DNA of 60,938 bases, the filler included. It is 6 parts of 6 records of this genome, joined end to end, with 100 filler letters (N's around TTAATTAATTAA, not from the genome) between each part and the next. Parts side by side here need not be neighbours in the genome. Positions count along the whole stretch, not along the records: positions 15,648 to 28,233 come from SRR22947725_3882; 5 more parts are not named here. One strand, given 5' to 3'. A program made the translations under genes and the position numbers. The notes under the pieces were generated by a model. It searched no databases, was not told where the DNA came from, and saw only the letters and a list, made by a program, of their open reading frames with translations. Of the stretch, positions 2,947-35,866 are shown piece after piece; the stretch's first letter is position 1; each line of letters begins with the position of its first letter.

Positions 2947-2953
2947 ACGACAT

Positions 2954-6016: not shown

Positions 6017-6063
6017 GTTTAAGCCTTTCGTTTCATCTCAAGTTAGGGCTGAAAAATCCGCGT

Positions 6064-6810
6064 TCAACCACGCTCTTTCCAACGGACCATTTGGCGCATG
6101 GTGCCATGCAGCATTTGCACATCGGCTTTGGTCAGCGGCATACGCGACCACAGGTTGCGCAGATGAACTTTCATACTGGCAGCCTTGGTTTCTGGAAAGA
6201 AAAAACCTGCTGTATCAAGTCGTTGCTCAAAATGTTCGGCCAATTTCTCGACTTCAAGCCCACTGGCCCATTCTGATTTTGTCACCTGAGCCGCAGGTTG
6301 CCCCACCTCGCCCAGCTGCCTTTGCCACTCATAGCTGAGGAGCAATACACATTGCGCCAGATTGAGCGACGGGAAGTCAGGGTTCACGGGGACCGAGATA
6401 ATCGCATTGGCGCGGATGATGTCATCATTTTCAAGACCCGCGCGCTCAGGGCCAAACATCACCGCCACCTTCTGTCCCGTCCCAATCCGCCGGGCCGCTT
6501 CCGCCATCGCAAATTCAGGACTGTACACAGGTTTGGTCAAATCACGCGGCCGCGCGGTTGTGGCCATCACGAAGGTGGTATCGGCCAATGCCTCGGCGGT
6601 TGTGTCAAACAATCGCGCCTCATCGAGCAAACGCCCGGCTCCACTGGCCATCGCCACGGCCTTTTGGCTTGGCCAGCCGTCACGCGGGTCCACGATGCGC
6701 ATATGATCGAGCCCAAAATTCCACATAGCCCGAGCGGCAGCGCCAATGTTTTCACCCATTTGCGGGCGAATGAGGATGATTGCGGGTTGTTGCAGAGAAT
6801 GACGTGTCAT
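6064..6810 (-). CDS. trmJ: tRNA/rRNA 2'-O-methyltransferase, TrmJ/LasT (SPOUT)
   Basis: GENIGAAARAMWNFG, FGPERAGL and SLNLAQ motifs. Confidence 0.9.
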   Translation of the reverse strand: MTRHSLQQPAIILIRPQMGENIGAAARAMWNFGLDHMRIVDPRDGWPSQKAVAMASGAGRLLDEARLFDTTAEALADTTFVMATTARPRDLTKPVYSPEFAMAEAARRIGTGQKVAVMFGPERAGLENDDIIRANAIISVPVNPDFPSLNLAQCVLLLSYEWQRQLGEVGQPAAQVTKSEWASGLEVEKLAEHFEQRLDTAGFFFPETKAASMKVHLRNLWSRMPLTKADVQMLHGTMRQMVRWKERG

Positions 6811-9465: not shown

Positions 9466-10047
9466 ATGACAGAAAAACCCAATATAACAGCCCTTGTCGC
9501 TGCCCGCATGTGCCATGATTTGGCCAGTCCTATTGGTGCCATTGGCAATGGCGTTGAGCTTGTGGAGTTGACAGGCAAAACCCTCGGCCAGGAGGGAGAA
9601 TTGGTCAAAGCCAGCGTCAACGCCGCCGTCGCAAAGCTCAAACTCTTCCGCATCGCCTTTGGTCAATTTAATGCGGATGAAATTTTAAACGCCGCCGAGA
9701 TTTCAGCCGTGCAAACAGCTTGGAACGTCACCGGCCGTATTCACGTCGATTTTATCCCCAAGCAATTACGGAAGACGGATGTGAAAACCTGTCTTTTAAT
9801 ATTGCAATCTATCCAAGTCGCCATGCTGCAGGGGGCCAAAGTGGTGGTTAAAATTGCAGAGGGGCGTCGGATCATCCATGCCATCGGTCCCAAGGTCACT
9901 TTTGATGAAGCGCTATGGTCCGCCCTCACGCATAAGCAGATCGCGCCCGACATCCCCCCCAAACATGTGCAATTTGCAATCTTACAGGCGCTTGATTTGC
10001 CACTGCAACTCCATCACAGCGCAACAGAAATGACTGTCAGTTTTTGA
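9466..10047 (+). CDS. chpT: Histidine phosphotransferase ChpT
   Basis: ARMCHDLASPIGAIGNGVEL and FRIAFG motifs; start set at 9466 because 9439 would overlap the DUF3553 start. Confidence 0.9.
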   Translation: MTEKPNITALVAARMCHDLASPIGAIGNGVELVELTGKTLGQEGELVKASVNAAVAKLKLFRIAFGQFNADEILNAAEISAVQTAWNVTGRIHVDFIPKQLRKTDVKTCLLILQSIQVAMLQGAKVVVKIAEGRRIIHAIGPKVTFDEALWSALTHKQIAPDIPPKHVQFAILQALDLPLQLHHSATEMTVSF

Positions 10048-10083
10048 CGGCGTCTTCGCTGCCGCGCTTGGGTGCATAAAGAT

Positions 10084-11340
10084 TTAAGCGCGCACCGCGC
10101 CGTCCCCACGCACCAAATATTTGAAACTTGTGAGCTGGGCGGCGCCGACGGGGCCGCGTGCATGCATTTTTCCGGTCGCAATGCCAATTTCAGCGCCCAT
10201 GCCAAACTCTCCCCCATCGGCAAATTGCGTTGAGGCATTATGCATCAAAATTGCGCTGTCCAACCGTTCAAAGAAACGGTCCACGGCGCGGCCATCTTCG
10301 GCCATGATACAATCTGTGTGATTGGAGCCATATTGGCGGATATGAGCAATCGCCTCATCGACATTGGCCACGGTTTTCGCCGCAATTTCCATGTCCAAGA
10401 ATTCTTTGCCCCAGTGGTCGGCCGCAGCCGGTTGGGTACCGGCAATCGCTTGTAGGGTTGTGTCCGCGTCAACCACAACTCCTTTGTCCATCAAAGCCTG
10501 GATCACCTCCGGGCCCCAGCTGGCGGCGATATCGTCATGCATCAGCAAACATTCAGCCGCGCCGCAAATTCCCGTGCGGCGGGTCTTGGCATTGAGCACC
10601 ACATCCAGGGTTTTTTGCCGATCCGCTGACGCATCTATATAGATATGCACAATACCTTCCAAATGCGAAAAGACCGGCACCCGGGCCTCACGCTGCACCA
10701 ATCCCACAAGCCCCTTGCCCCCGCGCGGCACAATCACATCTATCGTATCGACCATAGTGAGCATTTCGCTCACCGCAGCCCGATCACGGGTCGGCACCAA
10801 TTGAATGGTCGCCTCGGGCAAACCTGCGGCAACCACCCCTTTGACCAGGGCCTTATGGATGGCCGTGGAGGAATGAAAACCCTCCGATCCCCCGCGCAGA
10901 ATAACAGCATTGCCAGCCTTAAGGCAGAGGGCGCCGGCATCCGCAGTGACATTGGGGCGGCTTTCATAGATCACACCGATGACCCCCAAGGGCGTGCGCA
11001 CGCGTTTAATATGCAGCCCATTGGGGCGCTCCCACTCTTCAAGCACCTGCCCCACAGGATCTTCCTGCTCAGCCACCGCCCGCAGCCCATCGACCATGTT
11101 GCGAATGCGGTCTTCATCGAGCATCAAGCGGTCCAGCATGGCCGCCGAAAGACCTTTTTCGCGGCCGTAATCCATATCAAGCGCGTTGGCCTCTATGATA
11201 TCGCCCCTTGAGGCCCAAACATATTCAGCCGCCCCAATCAGGGCCGCATGTTTGCGCTCAGCGGTGGCAAATCCAAGTTCTGCCGCGGCGGCTTTTGCGG
11301 CGTTCCCAATCTGTTTAAGAGTTGCCTTCACATCCATCAT
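10084..11340 (-). CDS. proA: Glutamate-5-semialdehyde dehydrogenase
   Basis: [21 protein letters not shown] and [22 protein letters not shown] motifs. Confidence 0.98.
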
Positions 11341-11355
11341 CGTCTCCCAACAGTC

Positions 11356-14023
<2,668 letters not shown>

Positions 14024-15547: not shown

Positions 15548-15647
15548 NNNNNNNNNNNNNNNNNNNNNNNNNNNNNNNNNNNNNNNNNNNNTTAATTAAT
15601 TAANNNNNNNNNNNNNNNNNNNNNNNNNNNNNNNNNNNNNNNNNNNN
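15548..15647. other. Artificial contig linker
   Basis: N44-TTAATTAATTAA-N44, with truncated genes on both sides. Confidence 0.98.
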
Positions 15648-16181
15648 CATCGTGGTATGCATGATTTTTAGCTGGTCAGGGGCGATATCATTACCATTTT
15701 TATCCTGTTCAGGAACCGCCTCAACCGTCATCGCATCGGCCACAACATCCTGAATGACATAACCAACCGGCCCTAAAATAACGCTGGTCACAAACCATGT
15801 TTCAACAGGCATGATGCTAGCCATAAATCCGGTATGGCTAATCAGCCCATACATTATCAAAAGGCTGGCCGCAATTACCGTTGCCCCAAGCCCAACAAGG
15901 TAGGCTTTATGTTTCCAGATCAAATCAACCAGATGCCCAAGCGGCATTTTTAACGCCCATGGCAAACCCGCCCAGAAGCCAAGGCTGGCCAGAAATGCGG
16001 CAGATAAATTCAAATAATCCTTGATAAAAAAAGTTCCAACAATCGCAGTCAAGCCAGAAACCCCAGCGGCGAGATAAACCATAAGGGGTGGAAGATAGCT
16101 CCAGCGTAACTGATGTGGCAGTTCGCAAAGGCCCTTAATAACCGAATGAAGAGCGCTGTTCATAAAGCCAGTATTCTGCAT
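15648..16181 (-). CDS. BT1 (folate/biopterin)-like MFS membrane protein, 3'-truncated
   Basis: LPWALKMPLGHLVD and QDVVADAMTVE motifs; hydrophobic. Confidence 0.6.
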
Positions 16182-16418
16182 TCCACAAATTTTTCAAGTA
16201 ACAATGGAATTCTGTCAATGTACAAGCCGGCACTCATTTACAAAAACACGGTCAAAGAGATGTTTGGCCCAGCAGACGCGATAGTCATGACGTTAACCAA
16301 TGAAGACAGCGTTTCAACCCTAAAACGTTGCGATTAATTTATGATCTAAATCCCCAAATCGAGAAACTTCCTAATGTTGAAAAGATTAATCGATGATTAT
16401 AAATTCTGAATATGACAC

Positions 16419-17735
16419 CTAACAGCCTTTGATTAGATATTTTTCAGCAAATAGTAAAAGCGACATGTCTGCCCCACGTCGTGCCACAACCTGTACGCCA
16501 ACCGGCATCCCGCCTGCATCCAGGCCATAGGGCAGCGACAGGCTTGGAAGGCCTAGCAAGGTGAAGGCCCTGCTCATCAGCGGGCTGCCAGTGCCATCCG
16601 CTAAAGCCGGCGCAGTGTCGATTGTGGAGGGGGAGATCAGTATGTCTGAAGCGCCAAACAATTTGTTTTCATAATCATCTATTTGTTGTTGCGTCTCTTC
16701 AAACCTAGCTTTGGTCTCAACGGTCAATTCTTGCCCCTCAGTAATCAGTGCTTTAATATGGTCGCTCAATTTATCCCGGGCTGACTGCCATTCATCACTG
16801 AAACAGTGCGCAGCCTCAGCCGCCATCAGGAAAATCTGATCGCTCGTTAGCTTGTCAAAGTCCACGAACTCGATCACCTCGCCAGATTTGCATCCATTCG
16901 CATTTGCCAATGAATGGCATTTGGCAACCGCCGCCATACACGCATCGGCAACTTGGGGCTCCCAACTGCCAGTAATGGTGGACAATACCAGCTCCGGGAG
17001 GAGTTTTATTTTAGATTTGAAGGAGGGCTGTTTTGTCCCCGTTCCCGCTAGAAGCGCATTCATAACAACGATCAAATCATCAATCGTCCGCGTAAACAAA
17101 CCAACCGTATCAAGTGACGGCGCAAGATTTTTCACCCCATCGACCGGCAATAGGCCCAAACTCGGTTTAAAGCCAATAATGCCACAATAGGAAGCTGGCC
17201 TGATTGTTGAGGCAGCCGTCTGGCTTCCCAGCGCAAACGGCACCATTCCAGTCGCGACCGCCGCAGCCGACCCAGAGGAGGATCCGCCCGGGGTGCGTCC
17301 ATGATCATGCGGGTTTACGGTTGGGCCCGCTTGCCAATAGGCAAATTCGGTGGTGACTGTCTTGCCAATGACAATTGCGCCCAACGAGCGCAATATTGCA
17401 ACAAGTTTTGCATCGCTATCTGGTCGGTGATGCTGATAGATCACCGAGCCATAAGTGGTCACAAAATTGGCCGTATCGTATACATCTTTAACGGCTATTG
17501 GCACGGCTGCTAGAGGCAATATTTGCCAATTTGGTCTGGACATTAACTCTTGATATTGTTCCTCAACCTGGTCCCAATCCAGAGCCTTCCAGGCCTTTAT
17601 GTCACCATCACATTTGGTAATGAGGCTTCGTGTAGCATCAATAATTTCATCTGCACCCAAAGTACCACGACGTACTTTCTCAATGATAGCTGTGATTGAT
17701 TCGAGGTTTTTAGGTGCTTGATTAACAGGGCTCAC
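16419..17735 (-). CDS. Amidase signature family enzyme
   Basis: AVKD, TPGGSSSGSAAAVA and GSQTAASTIRPA give the Ser-cisSer-Lys triad. Confidence 0.92.
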   Translation of the reverse strand: MSPVNQAPKNLESITAIIEKVRRGTLGADEIIDATRSLITKCDGDIKAWKALDWDQVEEQYQELMSRPNWQILPLAAVPIAVKDVYDTANFVTTYGSVIYQHHRPDSDAKLVAILRSLGAIVIGKTVTTEFAYWQAGPTVNPHDHGRTPGGSSSGSAAAVATGMVPFALGSQTAASTIRPASYCGIIGFKPSLGLLPVDGVKNLAPSLDTVGLFTRTIDDLIVVMNALLAGTGTKQPSFKSKIKLLPELVLSTITGSWEPQVADACMAAVAKCHSLANANGCKSGEVIEFVDFDKLTSDQIFLMAAEAAHCFSDEWQSARDKLSDHIKALITEGQELTVETKARFEETQQQIDDYENKLFGASDILISPSTIDTAPALADGTGSPLMSRAFTLLGLPSLSLPYGLDAGGMPVGVQVVARRGADMSLLLFAEKYLIKGC

Positions 17736-17834
17736 GATAAAAACTCTCCATTAAGAAGCACTCTTCCCCTACCCAATCACGAGGCACGATGGCACAGATA
17801 CAACTAACAATTTTGCATTCTACCTAATATCAAT

Positions 17835-19727
17835 TCACAGTCTTTTTTTATTCGATGCATAAACGTAGACCGAAATTGCGAGGAACATTGTCACGGCAAC
17901 ATACCAGAAGTTCGTATCATATGTGAAACCAAGGAACCCAGCCAAGGCAATAAAAGCATAACCACCGCGCTCCGCACCGTTGAGCGAGCGGAAGAGGAAC
18001 CCGTAAGACGCGACCGACACTGCTACTTGCACAAATATCACCTCAATAATCGCTATTATAGTGCCCATCGTCATATTCGGGAATGACATCAACTCGGGTG
18101 AGAAGACAAAGGCAAACGGAATGATGAAGGTCGTCATCGCAATCTTCATCGAATCCCGTGCCGTACTCAAGAACGTTGCATCCCCTAATTTCGCCGCGGC
18201 AAGAACGCTGACAGCCACTGGCGGCGTTAGCGTGGAAAAGACCGCAAAGTAGAACACAAAGAAATGTGCTTGAAGGGCAGGAATGCCGATCTGTTGCATG
18301 AACGGAACTAGTGCCAGCGCAACGATGATATAGGCAACCGGCGTCGGCAAGCCCATGCCGAGGATCAATGAGACAACCATCGCGCCCAGCAGCAAAATAA
18401 GCTGTGTGTCCGGCAAATACTGGATCAATGCCGAACCCAAACGCCCGGACAAGTTGGTGGTCAACATGACCTGACCAAGCGGACCAACGGCAATCAACAA
18501 CAATGACAGGATGGCGACCAAGTAGAACCCCTCTTGAACGGCATCATAAAGCTGTTTGCCAGTAGGACGGAATTTTCCCTGTAACATCGCAAAGGCCAAC
18601 GCTAGTCCAATGCCCCACAAGCCGGCGATCGCTGGTGAGCGATATCCCAGCAACAAATACAGAACCACACCAAATGAGATGATGAATGTTGGTAGCAACC
18701 GCTTGATACGCGCTGTATCAACATGTTCAACCAATTTTGGGAGCTCATAGCGACGAGCATAGATCGTGACGGCAATACACACACCAACCAGATACAATAA
18801 TCCAGGGATCAGCGCAGATAGCGCGACATCAATATAGGCTCTGTTCAGGAAGGATGCGATGATAAATGCGGCTAGACCCATGATTGGCGGCATAATTTGA
18901 CCGGCTGTCGAGGCAGTAGCCTCAATTGCGCCTGCCATCGAGCCTTGATACCCGTATTTGCGCATCATCGGAACGGTAAGGCGACCGGTTAGAACCACGT
19001 TGGAGACGGCTTGGCCCATGATTGACGCGACAATTCCAGAACCAATTATTGCCGGGCCCGCAGCGCCGCCTGGGACTTTTCGTCCAGCAATTTTACCAAC
19101 ATCAAGGACCATGTCCAGCATCCCCACGCCAAGTAGAATAGCGGCATAGATAATTAGGAAATAAACTGAGTCCGCAGCGACCTGAGCAAGATAATAAAAG
19201 CCCTGATTCGTACCGAGACCAATGTAATTCATTACAAATTCTGGGTCATATTCTGGCGTCATGAATAACGGGTTTTCGATTAGATATCCTAAAAAGAAAT
19301 AAATGATAGAAATAGTGATGATGCTAGTCAGCAAGAGCCCCCAATGGATCAGAGTTAGCATCAAAATAGACACAGTCATGATCCAGCCAAAGATCATCTG
19401 TGTTTCGTTAAAGAATGGCTGAACTTGTTCAAGGGAAATCGCGTTATATCGCACATACCCCATGCCAATGGCCGAGAGCACGAAGGCTGACGCTGCGAAC
19501 ACAAAACGACCAGCGAAAAAGGGCTTTACCTGTTCGTTGATTTTTTCATCTATCAGACCCCGCATGGCAAGCAGGCCCGTCATAACACAGGTACCAAGGA
19601 TGAAGTTGGAATAATGTTCTGCCGAATTCTTGACAAAGCCGAAAGCAGAAGCCCCGATGTAGAATGTCAAAACAATCCCAGTAAGCAAGAAGGGGATATC
19701 GACAAATTTACGTGCGCTGGACCACAA
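17835..19727 (-). CDS. TRAP transporter fused (4TM/12TM, TAXI-type) permease
   Basis: AIEATASTAGQIMPPIMG, LGMGLPT and TLTPPVA motifs; TTG start with GGAG upstream. Confidence 0.92.
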   Translation of the reverse strand: MWSSARKFVDIPFLLTGIVLTFYIGASAFGFVKNSAEHYSNFILGTCVMTGLLAMRGLIDEKINEQVKPFFAGRFVFAASAFVLSAIGMGYVRYNAISLEQVQPFFNETQMIFGWIMTVSILMLTLIHWGLLLTSIITISIIYFFLGYLIENPLFMTPEYDPEFVMNYIGLGTNQGFYYLAQVAADSVYFLIIYAAILLGVGMLDMVLDVGKIAGRKVPGGAAGPAIIGSGIVASIMGQAVSNVVLTGRLTVPMMRKYGYQGSMAGAIEATASTAGQIMPPIMGLAAFIIASFLNRAYIDVALSALIPGLLYLVGVCIAVTIYARRYELPKLVEHVDTARIKRLLPTFIISFGVVLYLLLGYRSPAIAGLWGIGLALAFAMLQGKFRPTGKQLYDAVQEGFYLVAILSLLLIAVGPLGQVMLTTNLSGRLGSALIQYLPDTQLILLLGAMVVSLILGMGLPTPVAYIIVALALVPFMQQIGIPALQAHFFVFYFAVFSTLTPPVAVSVLAAAKLGDATFLSTARDSMKIAMTTFIIPFAFVFSPELMSFPNMTMGTIIAIIEVIFVQVAVSVASYGFLFRSLNGAERGGYAFIALAGFLGFTYDTNFWYVAVTMFLAISVYVYASNKKRL

Positions 19728-19767
19728 AGCATTAACTCCAAAAAAATAAATTTGATTGAGCGTATCA

Positions 19768-19792
19768 AGGCGGCGGCATACAGCCGCCGCCT
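19768..19792 (-). terminator. GC-rich stem-loop between the solute receptor and permease genes
   Basis: AGGCGGCGGC-ATACA-GCCGCCGCCT, a perfect 10-bp stem. Confidence 0.6.
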
Positions 19793-19806
19793 CTTATAAG
19801 AAAGGT

Positions 19807-20895
19807 CTAATTGGTGGCTGGATAGGTCATTGGTGTGCATAGCGGGTTATCACTTTGCTTCCACCAACCAAGTTCCTTGTAGGCACGAACAGCACCCGGA
19901 TGTGCGTTATCCTCTGAAAGACCACAAGTCATTAATTCCGGTGACCAGACACGCCAAAGTGCGTGGAGCTCACGCATTTCAGGTGCGATCTTTGCAACAG
20001 CCATCACTGTTTTATAAGCTTTTTCTTCATCAAAGCTCGAATGAACAGCAGCGTAAGCACGGTTCACACCAATGCCAAGTGGCTCATCCTGATAAGGAAG
20101 AGTGTTAGCCGGCAGGACTGTGTGCAACCAGGTTGCCTGAAACTTTGCATTCAGCTTGTCGATATCTTCTTTGGTCACACCGATATAGCAAAGCTTCTTG
20201 CCTGTAGCTTCGTGCTGGCGAACAACACCAGGGATCATGAACTCTTTAAAGTTTGGCTCCGCACCCAACGGGATGATCGCAGCATCTGTCGCACCGTCAA
20301 TCAACTGTTGTGTCAGCTGCGCTGGTGACATGTGGCGGATGTCTGTGTTTTCCGGCGTAATTCCGAACACTTCTTCAAGAAGCAACCTCGGAAATACGCC
20401 CCAGTCAGACTGTCCACGAAGGCCAAGCGAAATCCGCTTTCCTTTGAGATCTGACATTGTCTTCAGGCTACAATCGTAGGTTCCAAGAAACTTGCCCTGT
20501 GCCCACCACGTCTCACCATAGAGCAGTTTCCAAGGAACCTGAACTGGCTCTGGAACAAACTCTTTCATTTCCTTTGATCCACCTGCATAGGCAACCTGAA
20601 TCAGAGTATCTTCAGTCTTGAAGACAGATGACTTTTGTTTACGCTCATTCTTTCCCATTTCACGAATGTTGTACATATAGCCAGGCGTTTCCTGAGGAAG
20701 CAGGACAACGTCTGAACCATTTTTGATTAACTGATTCATCAAGATGGTATCGCCAGCCATGGGGCCGCAGCCAAATGGACAAAGCAAAATCGGAATTGTT
20801 TCTCCTGAATTAGCTGACATCGGAGCAGAAAATGACACCACCCCGAAGGCTAGAGCACCAAGTGCCTGACCAATGAACCTCTTTTTCGAAAACAT
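19807..20895 (-). CDS. TAXI family TRAP solute-binding protein
   Basis: Signal peptide, DLKGKRISLG and HPGAVRAYKELG motifs; ATG 20895 with GGGAGGT RBS; adjacent to the fused permease. Confidence 0.85.
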   Translation of the reverse strand: MFSKKRFIGQALGALAFGVVSFSAPMSANSGETIPILLCPFGCGPMAGDTILMNQLIKNGSDVVLLPQETPGYMYNIREMGKNERKQKSSVFKTEDTLIQVAYAGGSKEMKEFVPEPVQVPWKLLYGETWWAQGKFLGTYDCSLKTMSDLKGKRISLGLRGQSDWGVFPRLLLEEVFGITPENTDIRHMSPAQLTQQLIDGATDAAIIPLGAEPNFKEFMIPGVVRQHEATGKKLCYIGVTKEDIDKLNAKFQATWLHTVLPANTLPYQDEPLGIGVNRAYAAVHSSFDEEKAYKTVMAVAKIAPEMRELHALWRVWSPELMTCGLSEDNAHPGAVRAYKELGWWKQSDNPLCTPMTYPATN

Positions 20896-21024
20896 AAGAT
20901 ACCTCCCATTTGTAAATAATTCTACATACGCGGCTTTGATATTAATTTTATGCCCCAAATGAGAGCAAAGCCCCTCTCACCATGAATTTTCTAAACGACT
21001 TAATTACCAATGAACCTCTTTTTC
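20869..21024. repeat. Exact 19-bp direct repeat ACCAATGAACCTCTTTTTC
   Basis: Copies at 20869-20887 (inside the TAXI signal peptide) and 21006-21024 (after the BCCP stop). Confidence 0.9.
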
Positions 21025-21027
21025 ATT

Positions 21028-21492
21028 CTACCCAATCGAAAACAATGGCTGATCAAATTCTACTAGGGCGCCATCCTCTGCAAAGATTGCTTCTACTTTG
21101 CCGTCCACTGTAGCCTCAACGGATGTGAACAATTTCATCACCTCGATCAGGCAGAGCGTGTCACCTTTTTTCACCGTTTGTCCAACAACCACAAATGCCA
21201 CATCTTCTGGTGATGGTTTGCTATAATATGTGCCGACCATTGGTGATTTGACCACCTCACCACCTAACGCGCCCTGGTTGGTGTTTGCGGCGGGTGCGGG
21301 CGACCCTGATACAACCTCTGGAGTGACCAGCTTTGCGGCGATTGGAGTGGCTGTTTGCTCGGTGAGAGTTGCACCCTGTTCACCTTTTCGAACAACTAGC
21401 TTTATACCATCAAGCTCCAAGACGACTTCTGCACATGATGAGGAGTCAATCATTTTGAGTATTTCGCCAACATCAGCGTAATTCAGCGTCAT
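21028..21492 (-). CDS. accB: Biotin carboxyl carrier protein
   Basis: SPMVGTYY and biotinylation motif IEVMKL; Ala/Pro linker. Cluster-specific paralogue. Confidence 0.92.
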   Translation of the reverse strand: MTLNYADVGEILKMIDSSSCAEVVLELDGIKLVVRKGEQGATLTEQTATPIAAKLVTPEVVSGSPAPAANTNQGALGGEVVKSPMVGTYYSKPSPEDVAFVVVGQTVKKGDTLCLIEVMKLFTSVEATVDGKVEAIFAEDGALVEFDQPLFSIG

Positions 21493-21536
21493 CTTTATCC
21501 TCTCTAAATTTCTCTTCTATTCATCCGCAACGTTAC

Positions 21537-22358
21537 TCAATCACGTTTTTGTGATTCTAACTCAAAGACATAGGCATCCGCAGCCTGGCGCAGTTCGGGC
21601 AGCAATTTTTCTAACTCATTGCGAGATAACCGAGCCTCGGGTGCTGACAGCGCCATGCCGGCGAAAACGCTTCCATTTGACGTGCGTAGCGGCACTGCGA
21701 TACAGCACACCCCATTCATGAATTCCTGATCATCAACGCTAAAATCCTGAGATTTGATCTTCTCAAGTTCGCCCAACAGTTCCTGACTGTTGGATATGGT
21801 ACTTGGAGTATAGCGTTGCAGTTCCACCCGACTTAGTAACACTTCAACTTCGCTTCTACTTTTTAGTGCCAGCATCAATTTGCCAATCGAAGTGCAATGC
21901 ACAGGCACCTTACTGCCCGCCTCAAAATGCAACCCCAAAGGCCATGATGCCTCCACGCGATCGTGATAAACTATATGATCACCGATCAGCGCCCCAACAT
22001 TTACCGTTTCATTTACGCGTTTGACCAAACGTTCAAGATGAATAGTTTGGGGTCTGGAACCTATGCGATTAGATAAAATTTGATGCGCCAGAAGGAAAAG
22101 GTTTCTACCAGCAATGTAACCAGTCAATGTAGGGTGGCGTTGAACGTATCCGCACTCGACAAGAAAATTTATCAGTCTATGGGCGCTGGGTTTTGGTATG
22201 CCTGAAACCTCAACAATCTCTGACATCTGCACGGGATAGTCACGACTAACCAAGAGCTCAACTATCGCAAAGGCTTTTCCAGCCACGCCGAGACCCACCA
22301 TGTCATCGACACGTGCTGATAATACGCTCTGCGACAACCTCACCGAAGACAAAGTCAT
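21537..22358 (-). CDS. IclR family transcriptional regulator
   Basis: N-terminal HTH GIPKPSAHRL; HCTSIGKLML and GVCCIAVP motifs. Confidence 0.92.
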   Translation of the reverse strand: MTLSSVRLSQSVLSARVDDMVGLGVAGKAFAIVELLVSRDYPVQMSEIVEVSGIPKPSAHRLINFLVECGYVQRHPTLTGYIAGRNLFLLAHQILSNRIGSRPQTIHLERLVKRVNETVNVGALIGDHIVYHDRVEASWPLGLHFEAGSKVPVHCTSIGKLMLALKSRSEVEVLLSRVELQRYTPSTISNSQELLGELEKIKSQDFSVDDQEFMNGVCCIAVPLRTSNGSVFAGMALSAPEARLSRNELEKLLPELRQAADAYVFELESQKRD

Positions 22359-22440
22359 TCAATAGCCCTCAAAAATGGGCGAGGCGTGGGATCTTTTGAG
22401 CCTCTGAAAACACCAATCACTACCCTCCGTAACAAGATTG

Positions 22441-22489
22441 TTGACATACCTCAGATGGAAACGCAAGATGTTGTTTCATATCATGAGAT
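22441..22489 (+). promoter_or_regulatory. Sigma70-like promoter with a downstream palindromic operator (putative IclR site)
   Basis: TTGACA-17nt-CAAGAT, then TTTCAT-ATC-ATGAGA at 22474-22488. Confidence 0.5.
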
Positions 22490-22531
22490 AAAAAGTTTCA
22501 ATCTTAATTGCTTTGGAAAAAATGCCCTTTC

Positions 22532-23905
22532 ATGAAAAAGTCCAAAACAAAATTTCACAAGGTATTGGTGGCAAACCGTGGTGAAATTGCATTAAGAGCG
22601 GTGAAGACGTGCAAGAACCTTGGCATCAAAAGCCTCGCAATTTATTCGACTGCTGACAAATCATCTCAACACGCCATTCAGGCGGATGAGGCCGTGTGTA
22701 TTGGGCCCGCGCCGAGTTCAAAAAGCTATCTGGAACAGGCCGCGATCATTCATATTGCGTTGAAAAATAATTGTGACGCTATTTACCCAGGATACGGGTT
22801 TTTATCAGAAAATGCCAAATTTGTGGATCTGTGTGAGGCAAATGGCATTAAGTTTATCGGCCCAAGTGCGGACTCAATCCGCCGGATGGGCGATAAATCA
22901 ACCGCACGTCAAATCGCCATCGCAAACAAAGTACCAGTGGTAGCCGGATCCGATGGCGCCTATGACAATCCAGAAGACGCGATGCATGCGGCTCAGTCCC
23001 TCGATTACCCTTTATTGCTGAAGGCGCGCGCTGGCGGTGGTGGCCGGGGCATGCAAATCATCACTAATGAAAGTGAGTTCACAATCGCCTTCCAGCGCTG
23101 CAATGCAGAGGCTAAAAGCGCCTTTGGCGATGGATATATCTACATCGAGCGATATTTCCAAAAAATCCGCCATCTTGAAGTTCAAATATTAGGTGACGGC
23201 AAAGGAGAAGCCATCGCGATCGGCGAGAGGGATTGTTCAGTTCAACGCCGCCATCAAAAGTTGATCGAAGAAGCACCAGCCGCGATATTGAACGAAAAAA
23301 CGCGCAACGAGCTTCACAAAACTGCCGAAATGTTGGCAGCAGGTGTGAAGTATGAAGGCGCTGGCACCGTTGAATTCATTTATGATGTCACCACCAAAGA
23401 GTTCTTTTTCATTGAAATGAACACACGCATTCAGGTTGAACATCCGGTAACCGAGATGCTGACTGGGATTGACTTGGTTGCAACGCAATTTTTAATTGCA
23501 CACGGTGCGCCGTTCGAGAGTATTAAGCCGAGGCAAAAACAATCTGGACACGCCATTGAGTTCAGGATCAATGCTGAAAACTGGGAGCAGAATTTCAGAC
23601 CAAATCCAGGGAAACTAATCGCATGGTCTCCGCCTAAAATGTCTGGTGTTCGTGTCGACTCCGCCGCCTATGAGGGATATTATATTGTCCCGTTTTACGA
23701 TTCCATGATCGCCAAGCTGATTGTTCATGCTGAAAGTCGGGACTTGGCAATATCGAAGGCAAAAGACGCGCTGAAAAGTTTTAAGATCGAAGGCATAAAA
23801 ACCACAGCAGGCTTTCATGAAAAAATATTGAACCAAGAGGCCTTTCTGGCAAATAGTATTTCGACACGTTGGGTTGATGAGGTGTTTTTGGAGAATAACA
23901 CATGA
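22532..23905 (+). CDS. accC: Biotin carboxylase subunit (AccC/PycA-like)
   Basis: VLVANRGEIA, PGYGFLSEN, GGGGRGM, RDCSVQRRHQK, EMNTRIQVEH and YDSMIAKL motifs; start at ATG 22532. Confidence 0.95.
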   Translation: MKKSKTKFHKVLVANRGEIALRAVKTCKNLGIKSLAIYSTADKSSQHAIQADEAVCIGPAPSSKSYLEQAAIIHIALKNNCDAIYPGYGFLSENAKFVDLCEANGIKFIGPSADSIRRMGDKSTARQIAIANKVPVVAGSDGAYDNPEDAMHAAQSLDYPLLLKARAGGGGRGMQIITNESEFTIAFQRCNAEAKSAFGDGYIYIERYFQKIRHLEVQILGDGKGEAIAIGERDCSVQRRHQKLIEEAPAAILNEKTRNELHKTAEMLAAGVKYEGAGTVEFIYDVTTKEFFFIEMNTRIQVEHPVTEMLTGIDLVATQFLIAHGAPFESIKPRQKQSGHAIEFRINAENWEQNFRPNPGKLIAWSPPKMSGVRVDSAAYEGYYIVPFYDSMIAKLIVHAESRDLAISKAKDALKSFKIEGIKTTAGFHEKILNQEAFLANSISTRWVDEVFLENNT

Positions 23906-25377
23906 CGATGACAAGAGATGTGCGACTGATTGATGTCACTTTGCGTGACGCCCATCAATGTTTATGGGCAACGCGCATGACGACTGGCATGATGAAATCA
24001 ATGGCGCCTGCTCTTGATGATGCGGGCTTTGAAGCCATTGACCTTGTTGGCGGGGCGGTGTTCGATGTGTGCGTGCGCTACCTTCGCGAGGATCCTTGGG
24101 AGCGAATGCGCATTCTGAGCCAGTGGATCACGAAAACGCCCCTCATCATCCATACACGCGGCCAGAGCCTCTTTACCTTTGAATTTTTTCCCGATGATGT
24201 GGTTGCGCTATCTGCCCAGAGGTTCGCTGCAAACGGGATGCGGTATCACACGCCCTATGATGCGCTGAACGATATCCGCAATTTGGAAATTCCGATCACT
24301 GAGGCAAAACGGCATGGCCTGACCGTTGTTCCCGGGATCGTCTTTACGGAAAGTCCGGTGCACACCGACGAATATTACGTCAAAAAAACCAAAGAAGTAA
24401 TGACACACGGAGTCGATGGGATCTTTCTGAAAGACCCTAGCGGATTGCTAAGACCAGAGCGTGCCAGAAACCTTGTAAAAAGCATGAAATCAGTGATGGG
24501 CGACATGCCGTTGCAGCTTCACTCGCATTGCCTGTCTGGGCTTGCGCCATACACCGCACTTTGCGCCGTGGAGAGCGGTGTGGAGGTCGTGCATTCTGCA
24601 ACTGCGCCGCTAACGAACGGCGCCTCACACCCTTCCACGCAAGAGCTGGTCAATAATTTGCGGCGTATGGGTCACAATATTGATATCAACCTTGACAAAA
24701 TTGATGAAGTTTCAGAAGTCATAAAATTTATTGCCGCCAAGGAAGATAAACCCCTTGGTGAAATTGCCAAATATGACGCATTTCATTTTCACCATCAAGT
24801 CGCCGGAGGCATGATCTCGAATTTGGAATATCAGCTTAGCACCGTTGGCTTGGCTGATAGGCTAGAGGATATTTTGCAAGAGGCTGGCAATGTGCGTGCC
24901 GACCTTGGCTATCCGATTGTTGTGAGTCCATTCGCCCAGTACATAATCACGCAATCTGTTCTGAATGTAGTGGCCATGGATAATGGCAAGGAGCGGTTTT
25001 CAAGCGTGCCCAATGAGGTAAGATTATATGTCCGCGGCGGCTATGGCGAAATTGCCGGCCAGATTGATCCCAACCTTTATGACCGCATAACCAAGGGGGC
25101 AGAACCCATCAGTCAACGTCCAGGTGAATTGGTGCCACCTGCACTGGAAAAGACCAGAAAAAGACTAGGTGCGTCGGCGAGCGATGATGATGTTTTGTTG
25201 GCCGTTTTTTATGACAATAAAGAATACCAAGCTCTTAAAGATGCTGGGCCCATTGATACGGAATATCCGATAATGGAGACGCCTCTTAAAACCCTGATCA
25301 AGGGCATTACCGCACGCGATGACGTTACCAGTTTCCACTTTATTGACCATAACAGCAGCTTAGAGGTTTCAAAATGA
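23902..25377 (+). CDS. Stand-alone pyruvate-carboxylase/oxaloacetate-decarboxylase-type carboxyltransferase (no biotinyl domain)
   Basis: DVTLRDAHQ, EDPWER, LKD, LHSH and GGMISNL motifs; 491 aa with no MK biotin motif. Confidence 0.9.
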   Translation: MTMTRDVRLIDVTLRDAHQCLWATRMTTGMMKSMAPALDDAGFEAIDLVGGAVFDVCVRYLREDPWERMRILSQWITKTPLIIHTRGQSLFTFEFFPDDVVALSAQRFAANGMRYHTPYDALNDIRNLEIPITEAKRHGLTVVPGIVFTESPVHTDEYYVKKTKEVMTHGVDGIFLKDPSGLLRPERARNLVKSMKSVMGDMPLQLHSHCLSGLAPYTALCAVESGVEVVHSATAPLTNGASHPSTQELVNNLRRMGHNIDINLDKIDEVSEVIKFIAAKEDKPLGEIAKYDAFHFHHQVAGGMISNLEYQLSTVGLADRLEDILQEAGNVRADLGYPIVVSPFAQYIITQSVLNVVAMDNGKERFSSVPNEVRLYVRGGYGEIAGQIDPNLYDRITKGAEPISQRPGELVPPALEKTRKRLGASASDDDVLLAVFYDNKEYQALKDAGPIDTEYPIMETPLKTLIKGITARDDVTSFHFIDHNSSLEVSK

Positions 25378-26195
25378 GCAGCCCATGCATTGTTACATGC
25401 GCCATCACCGGTGCCATTCCAACAAAAGCTGACAACCCGGCTGTGCCCGTAATTCCAAGCGAACAGATCGAGTCCACGCATGAGGCATATGAAGCCGGTG
25501 CGTCTCTGGTTCACATTCACGTGCGAAATGACGATGAGACCCCCGGATCAGACCCGAAGAAATTCGAAGAGATTCAGGTGGGGGTGAAAAAACACTGTCC
25601 TGACATGATTATCCAGTTTTCAACTGGTGGCCGCGGCCGTGATCAAAGCAAACGTGGCTCGATGCTGCATCTGCGACCTGACATGGCGTCACTGGCGACA
25701 GGGTCGGTCAATTTTCCAACTGATATTTATGAAAACCCGCCTGAATTTGTCGATGGGTTGGCACAAACAATGCTGGATTACAACGTCAAGCCAGAGATTG
25801 AGATTTTTGACCTTGCCATGCTCTACAACGCCGCCTCGCTAATTAGCCGTGGTTTGCTGGAAAGCCCCCCGCATGTGCAGTTCGTGATGGGCATTCCTAA
25901 TGCGCTGCCGGCGCGCCGGTCAGTCCTCGAATTTCTGATCAAGGAATATAAAGAGGTGATACCGGTTGGCACATGGACTGCGGCTGGCATTGGCAGGCAC
26001 CAGTTTGAGGTTGCACAATGGTGTCTGGAACTCGGCGGCAATTGCCGGACTGGCCTTGAAGACAACATTAAATTCGACCGCGCAAGGTTGGCAAATAGCA
26101 ACGCTGAACTGGTGAAGAAACTGGTTGATGTAATGCCCGTATATAACCGCCAACCGGCCTCACCGACCGAAGCGCGTGAAATCCTTGGGCTTTAA
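25374..26195 (+). CDS. Beta-keto acid cleavage enzyme (BKACE/DUF849, Kce family)
   Basis: TCAITG, HIH, STGG, PEIE and RTGLED motifs. Confidence 0.93.
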   Translation: MSSPCIVTCAITGAIPTKADNPAVPVIPSEQIESTHEAYEAGASLVHIHVRNDDETPGSDPKKFEEIQVGVKKHCPDMIIQFSTGGRGRDQSKRGSMLHLRPDMASLATGSVNFPTDIYENPPEFVDGLAQTMLDYNVKPEIEIFDLAMLYNAASLISRGLLESPPHVQFVMGIPNALPARRSVLEFLIKEYKEVIPVGTWTAAGIGRHQFEVAQWCLELGGNCRTGLEDNIKFDRARLANSNAELVKKLVDVMPVYNRQPASPTEAREILGL

Positions 26196-26263
26196 CCCAT
26201 TATCTTTCTGCAACCCGGTTTTCTAACCTGACGACAACAATATTTTTTCGGAGGATCAACATC

Positions 26264-26884
26264 ATGAGACCATCCTTGAATAATGGCTATTCTGGGTCAA
26301 TAATTGCTGACACTATGATGGAGCGGTGTCTGAAAATTGTGGAAAGACAACAACAGGCTTCCAATTTCTTCATAAAAATGTTTTCAGTTCTTATCGGAAC
26401 GGGTCTAATCACCTTGTCATCCTATGTAACGGTCCCCCTTTACCCTGTGCCGGTGACTGCACAGACGTTAGTGGTGTTGTTGATCGGATTGTCCTTTGGC
26501 CCGCAATTAGCCTTTATAACAATCAGCCTATATTTGTTCCAGGGCGCTTTTGGCCTTCCGGTCTTTGCCGGTGGCACTGGTGGCCTTGGGGCATTGCTTG
26601 GTCCAACTGGTGGCTATCTTTTCGGCTTTCTTGCTGCAGGCTCATTGCTGGGTTTTTTAGCGCGGCGCGGGTTTGGCAAAAACTTTGTGACAACGATCAT
26701 CGCCATGGTCGCTGGTAATGCCGTTATCTATCTGCTTGGCGTGTCATGGCTGACGCACTTCATTGGCATCGAAAACGCATTGGTACAGGGTGTTTTGCCA
26801 TTCCTTTATGGGGATGCGTTGAAGATTCTGGCAGCCGCTGTGCTGATGCCCGTAGCTTGGAAATTTTTGTCACATACAAGATGA
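26264..26884 (+). CDS. bioY: Biotin transporter BioY
   Basis: PVPVTAQTL, GLPVFAGG and GPTGGYLFGF motifs; GGAGGA RBS. Confidence 0.93.
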   Translation: MRPSLNNGYSGSIIADTMMERCLKIVERQQQASNFFIKMFSVLIGTGLITLSSYVTVPLYPVPVTAQTLVVLLIGLSFGPQLAFITISLYLFQGAFGLPVFAGGTGGLGALLGPTGGYLFGFLAAGSLLGFLARRGFGKNFVTTIIAMVAGNAVIYLLGVSWLTHFIGIENALVQGVLPFLYGDALKILAAAVLMPVAWKFLSHTR

Positions 26885-27039
26885 AGACATGGTTTCTGAG
26901 GTGATGAATTCACTGATATTGACTAAAAGCACTACATGGGTTGGGTGTGGGGTTAGAATGGCTAAGTGTAATGATTTCTTGAGCCAATGCTTCACATCAT
27001 TTAAACGTAGCAGTGAACGCGACAATAATTAAGTGTACA

Positions 27040-27180
27040 AAAAAGTCGTCTCTAATCGAAGGCGGTTAATTTATTGATATTATTTGTAATATTTGTTTGC
27101 GGAGGCAGGGTTTACTCAAGACCCTACAATTAGTTCTTGGGTATGAGGTCGTTGCGGAGGCGCGCAACCGCCGTTACTTG
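27040..27180. mobile_element. Putative stacked attachment-site scars of tRNA-targeting integrative elements
   Basis: TTGCGGAGGC at 27097 and 27152 after a hairpin and AT-rich tract; translates as AEAGFTQDPTI and VAEARNRRY, recalled as large-serine-recombinase C-terminal/att junction-like. Confidence 0.35.
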
Positions 27181-27246
27181 CTCCTTGATTATACATTCAT
27201 TGTAGATCTGTTAAGCCAAAAGCATCCATTTACGCTACCTTGGCTT

Positions 27247-27897
27247 TTATTTTGTGCCATACATACGATCGCCTGCATCGCCGAGGCCAGGCAAAATATA
27301 CGCGTGATCATTCAGCTCACGATCAACAGCAGCAGTGATAATCGGAACATCTGGATGCTGGTCTGAAAAAGCCGTCAGACCCTCTGGGGCAGCCAGCAAG
27401 CATACAAATTTTATGCGTTTAGCGCCGGCATCTTTAATGCGTTGTACAGCCGCTGCCGCAGAGTTACCTGTAGCCAACATTGGGTCGACTACAATACATA
27501 AGCGTTCATCAAGTTGATCAGGTAACTTTGAATAGTACTCAACAGGTACTAACGTTGTTGGATCTCGGTAAAGACCAACATGCCCTACACGAGCCGATGG
27601 CACTAAATCCAGCATCCCATCAAGAAGACCATTGCCAGCACGTAAAATAGATATAAAGCAAAGTTTCTTTCCTTCAAGCTTAGGCATTTTCGCATTTTCG
27701 AGTGGGGTTTCTATTTCAACTTGCTCTGTTTCCAAATCGCTACACACTTCATAAGCCAATAGTAGGCTTATCTCACGTAATAGCTGCCGAAACTTTGCAG
27801 TTGGGGTAGATATATCACGCATGATAGACAGTTTATGCTGGACAAGCGGGTGACCAACTATTGTTGTGTTTTTCTGGTTCATATTTTGTTTTCCCAT
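27247..27897 (-). CDS. upp: Uracil phosphoribosyltransferase
   Basis: [20 protein letters not shown] and [12 protein letters not shown] motifs. Confidence 0.97.
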
Positions 27898-27915
27898 AGT
27901 TATTCTAAAACAGCA

Positions 27916-28233
27916 TCAAAAGATTGTTCCCCTGCTTTTTAGGCGCAAAGGTGGGCTAGCGTCAGCGCGCAGCCTCTGGGCAATCCTCCGACCAGCTGAC
28001 CAAGTGCCGCCTTGCAAGATGCTCACAAGCGGCATACTTTCTGAATTATTATTCGTATGCTGCCGAATTTGCTCAGCCAATTGATCAAGAAGGGTTACAG
28101 TCAATGCTCTCCATTCGACAATAAGTGGGCTTTTGGGGTCGTGTACTTTTTCCATTTGGGTTTTATCCCTTAAGGAAATTGTCCCAGTGTCTATGAATAA
28201 ACCGCCATTACGATATTCTGCGAGGCCGGTTAG
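27916..28233 (-). CDS. URC4/Urg3 (DUF1688) family protein, C-terminal fragment
   Basis: Frame extends to LTGLAEYRNGGLF...VEWRALTV...QGGTWSAGR...GTIF; adjacent to upp. Confidence 0.85.
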   Translation of the reverse strand, partial: LTGLAEYRNGGLFIDTGTISLRDKTQMEKVHDPKSPLIVEWRALTVTLLDQLAEQIRQHTNNNSESMPLVSILQGGTWSAGRRIAQRLRADASPPLRLKSRGTIF

Positions 28234-28333
28234 NNNNNNNNNNNNNNNNNNNNNNNNNNNNNNNNNNNNNNNNNNNNTTAATTAATTAANNNNNNNNNNN
28301 NNNNNNNNNNNNNNNNNNNNNNNNNNNNNNNNN
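28234..28333. other. Artificial contig linker
   Basis: N44-TTAATTAATTAA-N44. Confidence 0.98.
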
Positions 28334-35766: not shown

Positions 35767-35866
35767 NNNNNNNNNNNNNNNNNNNNNNNNNNNNNNNNNN
35801 NNNNNNNNNNTTAATTAATTAANNNNNNNNNNNNNNNNNNNNNNNNNNNNNNNNNNNNNNNNNNNN
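35767..35866. other. Artificial contig linker
   Basis: N44-TTAATTAATTAA-N44. Confidence 0.98.

Follow-up and report, generated by a model that had tools for sequence, protein, structure and literature searches.

Biotin-dependent carboxylation of methyl ketones has been described in two bacterial systems, HpeCBA and AcvCDE, both reported in 2022. According to the available portion of the published account, HpeCBA of Rhodococcus rhodochrous GD02 consists of a biotin carboxyl carrier protein (BCCP), a 49-kDa carboxyltransferase (CT), and a biotin carboxylase (BC), and turns 4-phospho-acetophenone and 4-phospho-acetovanillone into the beta-keto acids by carboxylating the methyl carbon of the acetyl group, at the cost of one ATP, converted to ADP; the ketone must carry the anionic phosphate, unphosphorylated ketones not being accepted, a CoA ligase and then a hydrolase act on the beta-keto acid, and the enzyme needed Rhodococcus as its expression host (PMC9618137). 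AcvE, from the AcvCDE system of Sphingobium sp. SYK-6, is a PycB-like CT reported to be 26% identical to a PycB (bioRxiv 10.1101/2022.04.28.489975), and a further set, XccABC of Aromatoleum aromaticum EbN1, has been predicted but not characterized (PMC9618137; bioRxiv 10.1101/2022.04.28.489975). The Hpe and Acv work therefore makes carboxylation of an anionic methyl ketone by a CT of the pyruvate carboxylase (PC) type established chemistry. Here, we analyze a gene module in a 60,938-nucleotide stretch of DNA assembled from six joined pieces (hereafter, the window), in which a three-part carboxylase is encoded together with an enzyme for the cleavage of beta-keto acids (BKACE); the module lies wholly within the piece at positions 15648–28233 (SRR22947725_3882), which is 12.6 kb long with approximately 47% G+C.

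The locus resembles Hpe, Acv, and Xcc in that BCCP, BC, and a PycB-like CT are encoded as separate genes within a catabolic cluster. The window CT also falls on the same side of a CT tree as proxies for the Hpe and Acv enzymes, and residues W22, H231, H298, and F344 are common to most of them. Unlike those systems, the module has no partner kinase (HpeHI/AcvAB) or phosphatase (HpeD/AcvF) on its piece, nor among the families common to at least three of the 80 related loci described below. Hpe and Acv act on phosphorylated aromatic ketones, whereas the uptake system and the BKACE type present here suggest a small aliphatic anion; and where the Hpe pathway employs a CoA ligase and a hydrolase, BKACE follows the CT in this locus and would do both jobs in one step. 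The window family also retains the RGQ motif and a lysine, unlike some Hpe-like CTs.

Comparison with the canonical pyruvate and oxaloacetate enzymes gives a similarly mixed picture. The CT fold, its domains, its metal and catalytic positions, and the use of a separate BC subunit are all shared with PycA/PycB of Methylobacillus flagellatus (5ks8). However, PycB carries a C-terminal biotinyl domain (the solved PycB has 617 aa, and a Catenovulum PycB, at positions 3001–4815 of locus L100, has 604 aa), whereas the window CT has 491 aa in which Pfam finds no Biotin_lipoyl or other biotinyl domain, BCCP being a gene of its own. Unlike PycB, moreover, the window CT does not group with PycB, OadA, or PC, and is coupled to a BKACE; in four of five module-bearing genomes examined, a normal PC is also encoded. 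The module also differs from the Na+-translocating oxaloacetate decarboxylases (OadGAB) in having an ATP-grasp BC instead of OadB and OadG; as an earlier reading of this DNA from its letters alone (the sequence-only reading) had noted, neither these subunits nor any AccA/AccD/PccB-type gene is found among the ORFs and Pfam matches of the 12.6-kb piece.

The pairing of carboxylation with BKACE cleavage has a counterpart in the synthetic CORE cycle, in which carboxylation is reportedly carried out by acetyl-CoA carboxylase and followed by promiscuous BKACE cleavage. In the available part of its description, that cleavage yields acetoacetate and an acyl-CoA (bioRxiv 10.1101/2025.11.21.689712). 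Unlike this engineered cycle with its acetyl-CoA carboxylase, the module described here is natural, and its CT and BKACE genes are translationally coupled. Literature searches for a carboxylase–BKACE pairing, a levulinate carboxylase, or an acetoacetate carboxylase found no paper; the matches instead concerned a carnitine BKACE, a phosphonate BKACE-like enzyme, or a "decarboxylase." The accessible parts of NetSyn and of a PLoS Computational Biology study on BKACE contexts mention no carboxylase. Both halves of the module are of known kinds, and it is their pairing for which the literature searched holds no description. The statement in the sequence-only reading that no characterized pathway has this gene set stands to that extent, but its chemistry is precedented by HpeCBA and AcvCDE.

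On balance, we lean toward reading the BCCP/BC/CT/BKACE core as a two-step catabolic device in which a ketone is carboxylated and the product is then cleaved by BKACE. BC would use ATP and bicarbonate to form carboxybiotin on the free-standing BCCP, and the CT would pass the carboxyl group on to a small anionic, non-CoA keto compound CH3-CO-R, at the carbon adjoining its carbonyl, giving R-CO-CH2-COO-. Family chemistry predicts that BKACE would then convert R-CO-CH2-COO- and acetyl-CoA to R-CO-CoA and acetoacetate, and cleavage with acetyl-CoA would thereby capture a labile intermediate without a CoA ligase. In the window, the TAXI-TRAP system would import the keto compound, the IclR regulator would govern the two operons, BioY would provide the biotin, and the amidase, which is malonamidase-like, may act as a local feeder or nitrogen-releasing step. 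The sequence-only reading had likewise proposed that a free keto acid is carboxylated and the resulting beta-keto acid cleaved by BKACE; the adjacency of CT and BKACE, the CT branch, and the 3-oxoadipate equivalog assignment of the BKACE speak for that outline, but the substrate is only a candidate.

That reading had also placed nine genes divergently around iclR, and ORFs, Pfam, and NCBIfam agree with its gene names and positions (Table 1). The ATGA overlaps that it saw joining BC, CT, and BKACE lie at 23902–23905 (BC/CT) and 25374–25377 (CT/BKACE).

Table 1. Features of the module-bearing piece, with positions counted along the whole window
Feature	Position	Strand	Evidence and remarks
BT1/MFS-like membrane protein gene	15648–16193	-	Truncated where the piece starts; a listed ORF, 15600–16181, extends into the N spacer
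Amidase-signature amidase, malonamidase-E2-like	16419–17735	-	Pfam Amidase 245 bits; last gene of leftward operon; accessory
Fused TRAP permease, TAXI type	17835–19727	-	TIGR02123 TRAP_fused 339.8 bits (cut-off 320.65); Pfam DctM
TAXI-family solute-binding protein	19807–20958	-	Pfam NMT1_3 69.1 bits; TIGR02122 TRAP_TAXI 74.1 bits, below cut-off 84.35
Stand-alone BCCP	21028–21492	-	TIGR00531 126.3 bits (cut-off 115.2); first gene of leftward operon
IclR-family regulator	21537–22358	-	Pfam HTH_IclR and IclR_C; between BCCP and the divergent region
Divergent control region, iclR / carboxylase operon	22359–22531	.	Read from sequence
Biotin carboxylase (BC), ATP-grasp	22508–23905	+	Pfam Biotin_carb_N, CPSase_L_D2, Biotin_carb_C; NF006367 620.1 bits (cut-off 597)
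Stand-alone TIM-barrel carboxyltransferase (CT), PycB/OadA/5S fold	23902–25377	+	491 aa; HMGL-like PF00682 52.8 bits and PYC_OADA PF02436 107 bits
BKACE	25374–26195	+	Pfam PF05853 317 bits, residues 4–273 of 273
BioY biotin transporter component	26264–26884	+	Pfam BioY 132.6 bits; accessory

A scan of one genome per species returned at least 600 candidate stretches, at least 507 of which encode a relative of the window CT; the best 80 loci, with CT identities of 63–72%, were used for gene-content comparison. Gene presence was counted by tblastn with the window's nine proteins and a 10-kb reach, and ORF clusters were left out of these counts because the ORF caller took antisense ORFs in high-G+C loci (clusters c18, c26, and c27). 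BC lies directly upstream of the CT in 55 of the 70 loci with at least 1.5 kb of upstream sequence; of all 80 loci, 60 encode BCCP and 39 encode IclR. A BKACE at 50% identity or more follows the CT directly, on the same strand, in 41 of the 70 loci with at least 1 kb of downstream sequence; without regard to position, 45 of 70 have such a BKACE, and the number rises to 49 of 70 when paralogs of approximately 30% identity are counted as well. This association of CT and BKACE is far beyond chance. Of the same 80 loci, 29 have both TAXI protein and permease, eight the amidase, and three BioY. The core is therefore BCCP/BC/CT/BKACE, usually with IclR, and TAXI-TRAP, amidase, and BioY are accessory, a local elaboration. 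The co-occurrence that the sequence-only reading proposed to look for between the CT and DUF849 (BKACE), TAXI, and amidase genes thus holds for BKACE but only in an accessory way for the other two, and the exact nine-gene set does not persist as a unit. Nor does the initial amide hydrolysis of that reading generalize: an amidase found in so few loci cannot define the pathway, and would be at most a local feeder step.

The 80 loci derive from Rhodospirillaceae, Hyphomicrobiales, Roseobacteraceae, Arenicellales, and other Alpha- and Gammaproteobacteria, with differing flanks; the closest overall layout among them is that of L002, from a Rhodospirillaceae metagenome-assembled genome (MAG). Cultured carriers of the module include Shimia gijangensis DSM 100564, Roseovarius halotolerans CECT 8110, R. 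nitratireducens TFZ, and Afifella sp. IM 167. Relatives of the CT number in the thousands, many of them 69–92% identical and approximately 483–491 aa long. Under even sampling, the CT was found in one of 301 genomes drawn from the class of G001 (the genome matched by another piece of the window; E ≤ 1e-100) and in one of 201 genomes from the family of Shimia gijangensis (G303), where the sole match was G303 itself (E ≤ 1e-120). The module is rare and patchy, and because the CT is so rare, co-occurrence under even sampling is uninformative. A plasmid collection held no CT ortholog at 60% identity or above; its 33 records with CT matches all fell below that threshold.

Fused forms were limited to two long proteins, one BC::CT and one joining a CT with an acyl-CoA-type CT; no CT::BKACE fusion was found, an absence that is weak evidence. 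The BC–CT fusion (P0121) has 921 aa, with a CT part 57% identical to the window CT. Other variants concern the arrangement of the core. In the Hyphomicrobiales-type loci L028, L034, and L048, the CT stands head to head with BCCP and no BC lies within 10 kb; BC may be borrowed from elsewhere in these genomes. In Roseovarius lutimaris (L025), the CT-adjacent BKACE is seemingly a fragment, with 66% identity over residues 3–121 in a 145-aa open frame, and the same genome (G302) encodes two full BKACEs, at 53% identity, on other contigs. A 62%-complete genome (G153) has four CT paralogs on four contigs, with 60, 51, 48, and 39% identity to the window CT. The Hyphomicrobiaceae locus L010 encodes two CTs (4323–6515 and 10001–11455; 41% and 68% identity to the window CT) around a single BCCP/BC pair, with a LarA-like gene between the two CTs.

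The best solved relatives of the window CT are PycB (5ks8_C, 289.6 bits), Vibrio OadA (2nx9), and the transcarboxylase 5S subunit. Its placement was assessed against four canonical comparators: a Catenovulum PycB encoded beside a BC gene, Klebsiella OadA, Ilyobacter OadA, and the full-length PC of G001. The Hpe/Acv-like CT rows are proxies chosen by gene context. Three come from plasmid clusters of Rhodococcus oxybenzonivorans, Rhizobium leguminosarum, and Pseudomonas putida that encode a phosphoenolpyruvate-utilizing kinase, BCCP, BC, CT, and a phosphatase, two of them also with an acetoacetate-CoA-ligase-like gene; a fourth, from Novosphingobium, is unannotated and was grouped by similarity. 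In the resulting tree of 80 rows—a quick LG+G4 reconstruction with long branches and only the four canonical rows—all 76 stand-alone CTs split from the canonical pyruvate/oxaloacetate enzymes with SH-aLRT support of 100. The 67 rows labeled as the family (the window and 66 loci) form one clade (SH-aLRT 100), the Hpe-like rows and a Sulfitobacter plasmid CT a second (SH-aLRT 91), and the Burkholderia, Arthrobacter, and L010 CTs a third group (SH-aLRT 97). Fourteen of the 80 loci are absent from the tree, their CTs having been missed by ORF calling, and the L010 row, labeled as family, is the 41%-identical paralog. Identity between the window CT and the Hpe-like proxies, which lie on its side of the split from the canonical enzymes, is 34–39%.

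The derived positions follow this division: W22, H231, H298, and F344 of the window CT are common to most or all of the stand-alone CTs, and all four canonical enzymes differ there. Further changes near active-site motifs are specific to the family, namely RGQSLFTFEFF replacing RGQNLLGYRHY and HTPYDA replacing FR(I/V)FDA. Additionally, the four of five module-bearing genomes noted above encode a full-length single-chain PC that is 60–82% identical to that of G001. The tree, the derived residues, and the co-resident PC together argue that the window CT is not an ordinary pyruvate carboxylase. Source records label its relatives as "pyruvate carboxylase subunit B," as "oxaloacetate decarboxylase alpha," or simply as "carboxylase," and the first two labels are probably wrong for genes of at least 500 species.

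Three plasmid loci illustrate other stand-alone carboxylases. L095, on a Burkholderia sp. THE68 plasmid (6986–15446), encodes a different three-part carboxylase (CT, accB, and accC), with genes for an ActP-type acetate symporter, carbonic anhydrase, and biotin synthesis nearby and an acetoacetate decarboxylase gene upstream. L096, on a Sulfitobacter faviae plasmid (1943–8458), has accB, accC, and a CT annotated as "hypothetical protein" beside a DctPQM TRAP system, the CT sitting on a very long branch. On an Arthrobacter plasmid, BioY occurs beside an unrelated three-part carboxylase.

The BKACE passes the 3-oxoadipate:acetyl-CoA acetyltransferase equivalog model NF053568 at 455.5 bits (cut-off 350), scores 277 on the lysine-fermentation Kce model, below its cut-off of 382, and has the Cupriavidus-type protein 3no5 as its best solved relative (355 bits, aligned end to end). 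In alignments with 3no5 and 3chv, its HIHVRN and GLEDN stretches are matched, which maps the zinc-binding His-x-His and Glu by motif; the reported zinc ligands of the homolog BsfD are His48, His50, and Glu247 (PMC12871164). The enzyme resembles the Cupriavidus necator H16 3-oxoadipate BKACE (NF053568) in its full-length fold and in scoring above the cut-off. However, the CT-adjacent BKACEs form a sister group: among five CT-linked orthologs from other loci, which score 440–492 bits, those of the window's type reach 440–472 and a 53%-identical type, which takes its place in Roseovarius loci and L027, reaches 485–492. The BKACE paralogs of approximately 30% identity fail all models. The BKACE family is promiscuous, and groups acting on beta-ketoadipate and on substrates with a negative charge have been described in it, according to the part of the source available (PMC4922564).

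Because the BKACE falls within the 3-oxoadipate equivalog, levulinate (4-oxopentanoate) is our favored, though doubtful, candidate substrate: it would be carboxylated to 3-oxoadipate, which BKACE would cleave to succinyl-CoA and acetoacetate. The lack of a dedicated enzyme for the acyl-CoA product in most loci fits levulinate as well, since succinyl-CoA needs none. Levulinate had been one of the examples offered by the sequence-only reading; the BKACE equivalog fits it, but some accessory genes of the related loci suggest sulfonates instead. In the accessible part of a study on Roseovarius, levulinate forms non-enzymatically from beta-ketoadipate, and loss of pcaIJ did not stop a strain from consuming beta-ketoadipate, through a route that was not identified (PMC13719989). 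Levulinate carboxylation might explain this loss of beta-ketoadipate in pcaIJ-deficient Roseovarius, which matters for lignin valorization.

Environmental occurrence is consistent with a marine setting. The 5.9-kb core was recovered, at half or more of the sampled words, in 14 runs, comprising 13 DNA runs from nine seawater or marine metagenome studies and one metatranscriptome run from one of those studies, and metagenome DNA contigs match the core at more than 99% identity. Contigs from two metatranscriptome libraries cover the piece, including one 3104-base contig corresponding to 22837–25940; such libraries can hold DNA, and these contigs are not evidence of transcription. Given that the core turns up in seawater metagenomes of nine studies, its substrate probably belongs to the dissolved organic matter of the sea.

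Only tentatively do we advance the fuller proposal that this is the first aliphatic biotin-dependent methyl-ketone carboxylase, tied to a BKACE, that would spend one ATP to convert a small anionic methyl ketone in two steps to an acyl-CoA and acetoacetate, a previously unrecognized catabolic route, patchily distributed in marine and soil Proteobacteria, with levulinate, a related omega-1 oxo acid, or a sulfonated analog as candidate substrates. If true, biotin-dependent ketone carboxylation would extend from phosphorylated aromatic ketones to small aliphatic anions, and the module would be a natural pairing of carboxylation with BKACE, a logic otherwise used only in a synthetic CO2-reduction cycle.

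The genes recurring around the core, identified by ORF clustering of the 80 loci with ORF calls that are noisy in high-G+C loci, bear on this proposal. Short-chain dehydrogenases/reductases (SDRs) occur in 39 of 80 loci. One type, resembling polyol or hydroxy-acid dehydrogenases, is at least 45% identical to two reference copies in 13 loci, with a related type in approximately 15 more, and in six of 80 the gene after BKACE or BCCP encodes an SDR that passes the subfamily model for 3-hydroxybutyrate dehydrogenase. The widespread SDR would fit a ketone made from a secondary alcohol. A block seen in 10–11 of 80 loci, in Arenicellales, comprises a glutathione S-transferase, a family III CoA-transferase, a 3-hydroxyacyl-CoA dehydrogenase, an ADP-forming acyl-CoA synthetase, and an enoyl-CoA hydratase. 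Genes predicted to handle acetoacetate, namely the 3-hydroxybutyrate-dehydrogenase-type SDR and the CoA-transferase, 3-hydroxyacyl-CoA dehydrogenase, and enoyl-CoA hydratase of this block, stand beside BKACE in some loci, which would fit acetoacetate as an output, and the varied anion transporters (TAXI-TRAP, NitT/TauT-type ABC, MFS, and DctPQM) appear to fit a small anionic substrate. A CurA-like enone reductase in L037 scores 438.7 bits, just under its cut-off of 440, and has a clustered homolog in L003; such an enzyme could supply levulinate from acetylacrylate. As a separate observation, the Acidocella MAG locus L043 encodes, at 1956–5400 and just upstream of the module, a SauS-like dehydrogenase and, after it, the subunits of an ADP-forming CoA ligase resembling SucC and SucD, a pair that could activate sulfoacetate.

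Several observations weigh against carboxylation of a methyl ketone followed by BKACE cleavage, or against levulinate in particular. No BKACE lies within 10 kb in 21 of the 70 loci, and a distant second BKACE paralog is present in 15 of 80. The CT passes the NF006761 "pyruvate carboxylase subunit B" domain model (437.4 bits; cut-off 402), and the alignment shows that it keeps R15, D16, Q19, R86, K177, H207, H209, and S306, which align with the canonical RD..Q, RG, KD, H.H, and GG..(S/T)N motifs. We take these residues, from the pyruvate carboxylase literature, to serve metal, pyruvate, and proton handling. Thr882 is reported as catalytically essential in pyruvate carboxylase (PMC5895798). Pyruvate is thus a possible CT substrate, compatible with the conserved residues. 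The tree does not settle the branching order among the three stand-alone CT groups, and the Hpe/Acv-like rows, being proxies and not characterized proteins, limit what their grouping with the window CT can say. No SDR is encoded on the window piece. LarA-like genes occur near a transporter in 11 loci, with LarB and LarC homologs in six to seven; these 2-hydroxy acid genes would fit lactate or pyruvate better. Finally, and specifically against levulinate, a SauS-equivalog acylating dehydrogenase is found in eight of 80 loci (783 and 729 bits; cut-off 600), TauE-family genes in 16, and SsuA/NMT1-type ABC binding proteins in 11, giving a union, SauS included, of 24 of 80.

These last genes make a sulfonated methyl ketone a serious rival to levulinate. 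The same two steps would, for example, take 2-oxopropane-1-sulfonate to 4-sulfoacetoacetate and then to sulfoacetyl-CoA and acetoacetate, after which SauS would form sulfoacetaldehyde and a TauE-type protein would export sulfite or sulfonate. In three of its eight loci, the SauS-type gene comes immediately after CT or BKACE in the same orientation, and the gene pairing of the Acidocella locus points the same way; additionally, the 3-hydroxybutyrate-dehydrogenase-type SDR of six loci could oxidize a sulfonate look-alike of 3-hydroxybutyrate, and the amidases resemble malonamidase E2, whose substrate may be likened to sulfoacetamide. However, SauS is in some cases encoded on the opposite strand next to a second BKACE, perhaps as part of a neighboring pathway, TauE is a broad transporter family whose count of 16 of 80 has no background-frequency control, and 56 of 80 loci have none of the SauS, TauE, or SsuA-type genes. 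The window piece itself has none of these sulfonate-linked genes, and its BKACE is closest to an enzyme of the dicarboxylate 3-oxoadipate. The literature searched for natural occurrence or breakdown of sulfoacetone, 2-oxopropane-1-sulfonate, or acetonesulfonate yielded none, and in the accessible parts of the matching texts the name of the hydroxy compound appears only within dihydroxypropanesulfonate (DHPS), an aminohydroxypropanesulfonate reference, or the name of the DHPS lyase HpsG (two papers). We therefore regard a sulfonated ketone as rather unlikely to be the substrate. A more conventional account, in which the carboxylase is a split, inducible pyruvate carboxylase that refills oxaloacetate while BKACE acts on an unrelated beta-keto acid (e.g., 3-oxoadipate from aromatics) and is merely co-regulated, would draw on the retained catalytic and pyruvate-binding positions, approximately 40% identity to the solved PycB, passage of the PycB domain model, the names that public records give to CT relatives, and the lactate-racemase-type LarA near a transporter in 11 loci. 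It is distinctly unlikely in our judgment: the CT groups with non-pyruvate stand-alone CTs at SH-aLRT 100 and has four derived residues in common with them, most of the module genomes examined already have a full-length PC, unrelated steps would hardly account for the ATGA coupling of CT to BKACE in the window or for their same-strand adjacency in 41 of 70 loci, and the rarity of the CT (1/301 and 1/201 genomes) is unlike that of a housekeeping function. The sequence-only reading had named a CT acting only on pyruvate as its own refutation; on sequence grounds the CT does stand apart from OadA, PycB, and PC, but with its pyruvate-binding residues kept.

Two further routes combine the same enzymes differently. 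Pyruvate could be carboxylated to oxaloacetate, which BKACE and acetyl-CoA would convert to oxalyl-CoA (or oxalate) and acetoacetate in the manner of Burkholderia ObcA, described in the available part of its source as carrying out an acetyl-CoA-dependent step in the conversion of oxaloacetate to oxalate and acetoacetate (PMC12871164). ObcA (4nna) is a distant match of the BKACE query (E 1.5e-09), the pyruvate-type CT residues would suit such a route, and in 11 loci BKACE is followed by a family III CoA-transferase with weak similarity to oxalate/formyl-CoA transferases (156 against a cut-off of 522). However, the window BKACE belongs to the 3-oxoadipate equivalog and not to the ObcA-like form, no oxalyl-CoA decarboxylase or other oxalate gene is among the families common to at least three loci, the tree speaks against a pyruvate CT, and the net reaction would bring no clear benefit to a catabolic operon with an uptake system; we consider this route very improbable. 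Equally little weight falls on acetoacetate as substrate, the second example of the sequence-only reading: it would be carboxylated to 3-oxoglutarate and cleaved to malonyl-CoA with acetoacetate returned, making acetoacetate a catalytic carrier in an alternative form of acetyl-CoA carboxylation. Two potential sources of acetoacetate, 3-hydroxybutyrate-dehydrogenase-type SDRs and BKACE paralogs, occur in the loci, the amidase resembles malonamidase, and the SauS-like enzyme could reduce malonyl-CoA on account of its likeness to sulfoacetyl-CoA; but no imported carbon would be consumed, so that an IclR-controlled operon with an uptake system would make little sense, and an ordinary acetyl-CoA carboxylase is expected in these bacteria. 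Carboxylation of a small anionic methyl ketone followed by BKACE cleavage is the reading that we retain, with levulinate as the favored candidate.

The remaining genes of the module add detail on its local form. The BCCP has an EVMKL biotin-lysine motif near its C-terminus. For BC, the in-frame ATG at 22532 is a likelier start than the listed TTG at 22508. The best NCBIfam match of the IclR protein is the PcaR/PcaU subfamily (143 bits, below the cut-off of 284.75). Relatives of the TRAP permease reach 77% identity in related loci by tblastn, and the TAXI protein has only weak matches among solved TAXI structures (best E 5e-07). The amidase matches no NCBIfam model at its cut-off; its best solved relative is malonamidase E2 (MAE2), at 200.7 bits compared with approximately 130 for GatA, and MAE2 is likewise the best solved relative of the amidases of L002 and L004. 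This resemblance suggests that the module-linked amidases of these three loci may act on a small amide with an acidic group. The control region at 22359–22531 contains only one short, weak and imperfect palindrome (22474–22493). Promoter-like sites on the piece are not above shuffled sequence (24 versus 18.4, standard deviation 4.4), and terminator-like sites are rarer than in shuffles.

The composition of the window limits what can be said of the module's surroundings. Five spacers (15548–15647, 28234–28333, 35767–35866, 49540–49639, and 54886–54985), in each of which a 12-base stop linker separates two runs of 44 N (440 N in total), and shifts in G+C across the six pieces (approximately 55, 47, 34, 25, 30, and 30%, with a drop from 55% to 24% along the window) identify the window as six joined pieces. 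Because they lie on separate joined pieces, genes outside 15648–28233 (obg, proB, ribosomal genes, and others) are not neighbors of the module, and the module-bearing piece is itself cut at both ends. The first piece is 99.4–100% identical to genome G001, which the other pieces compared do not match; G001 itself is without the module and encodes only a full-length PC. The genome from which the six pieces come is probably either a mixed bin or unrelated contigs joined together.

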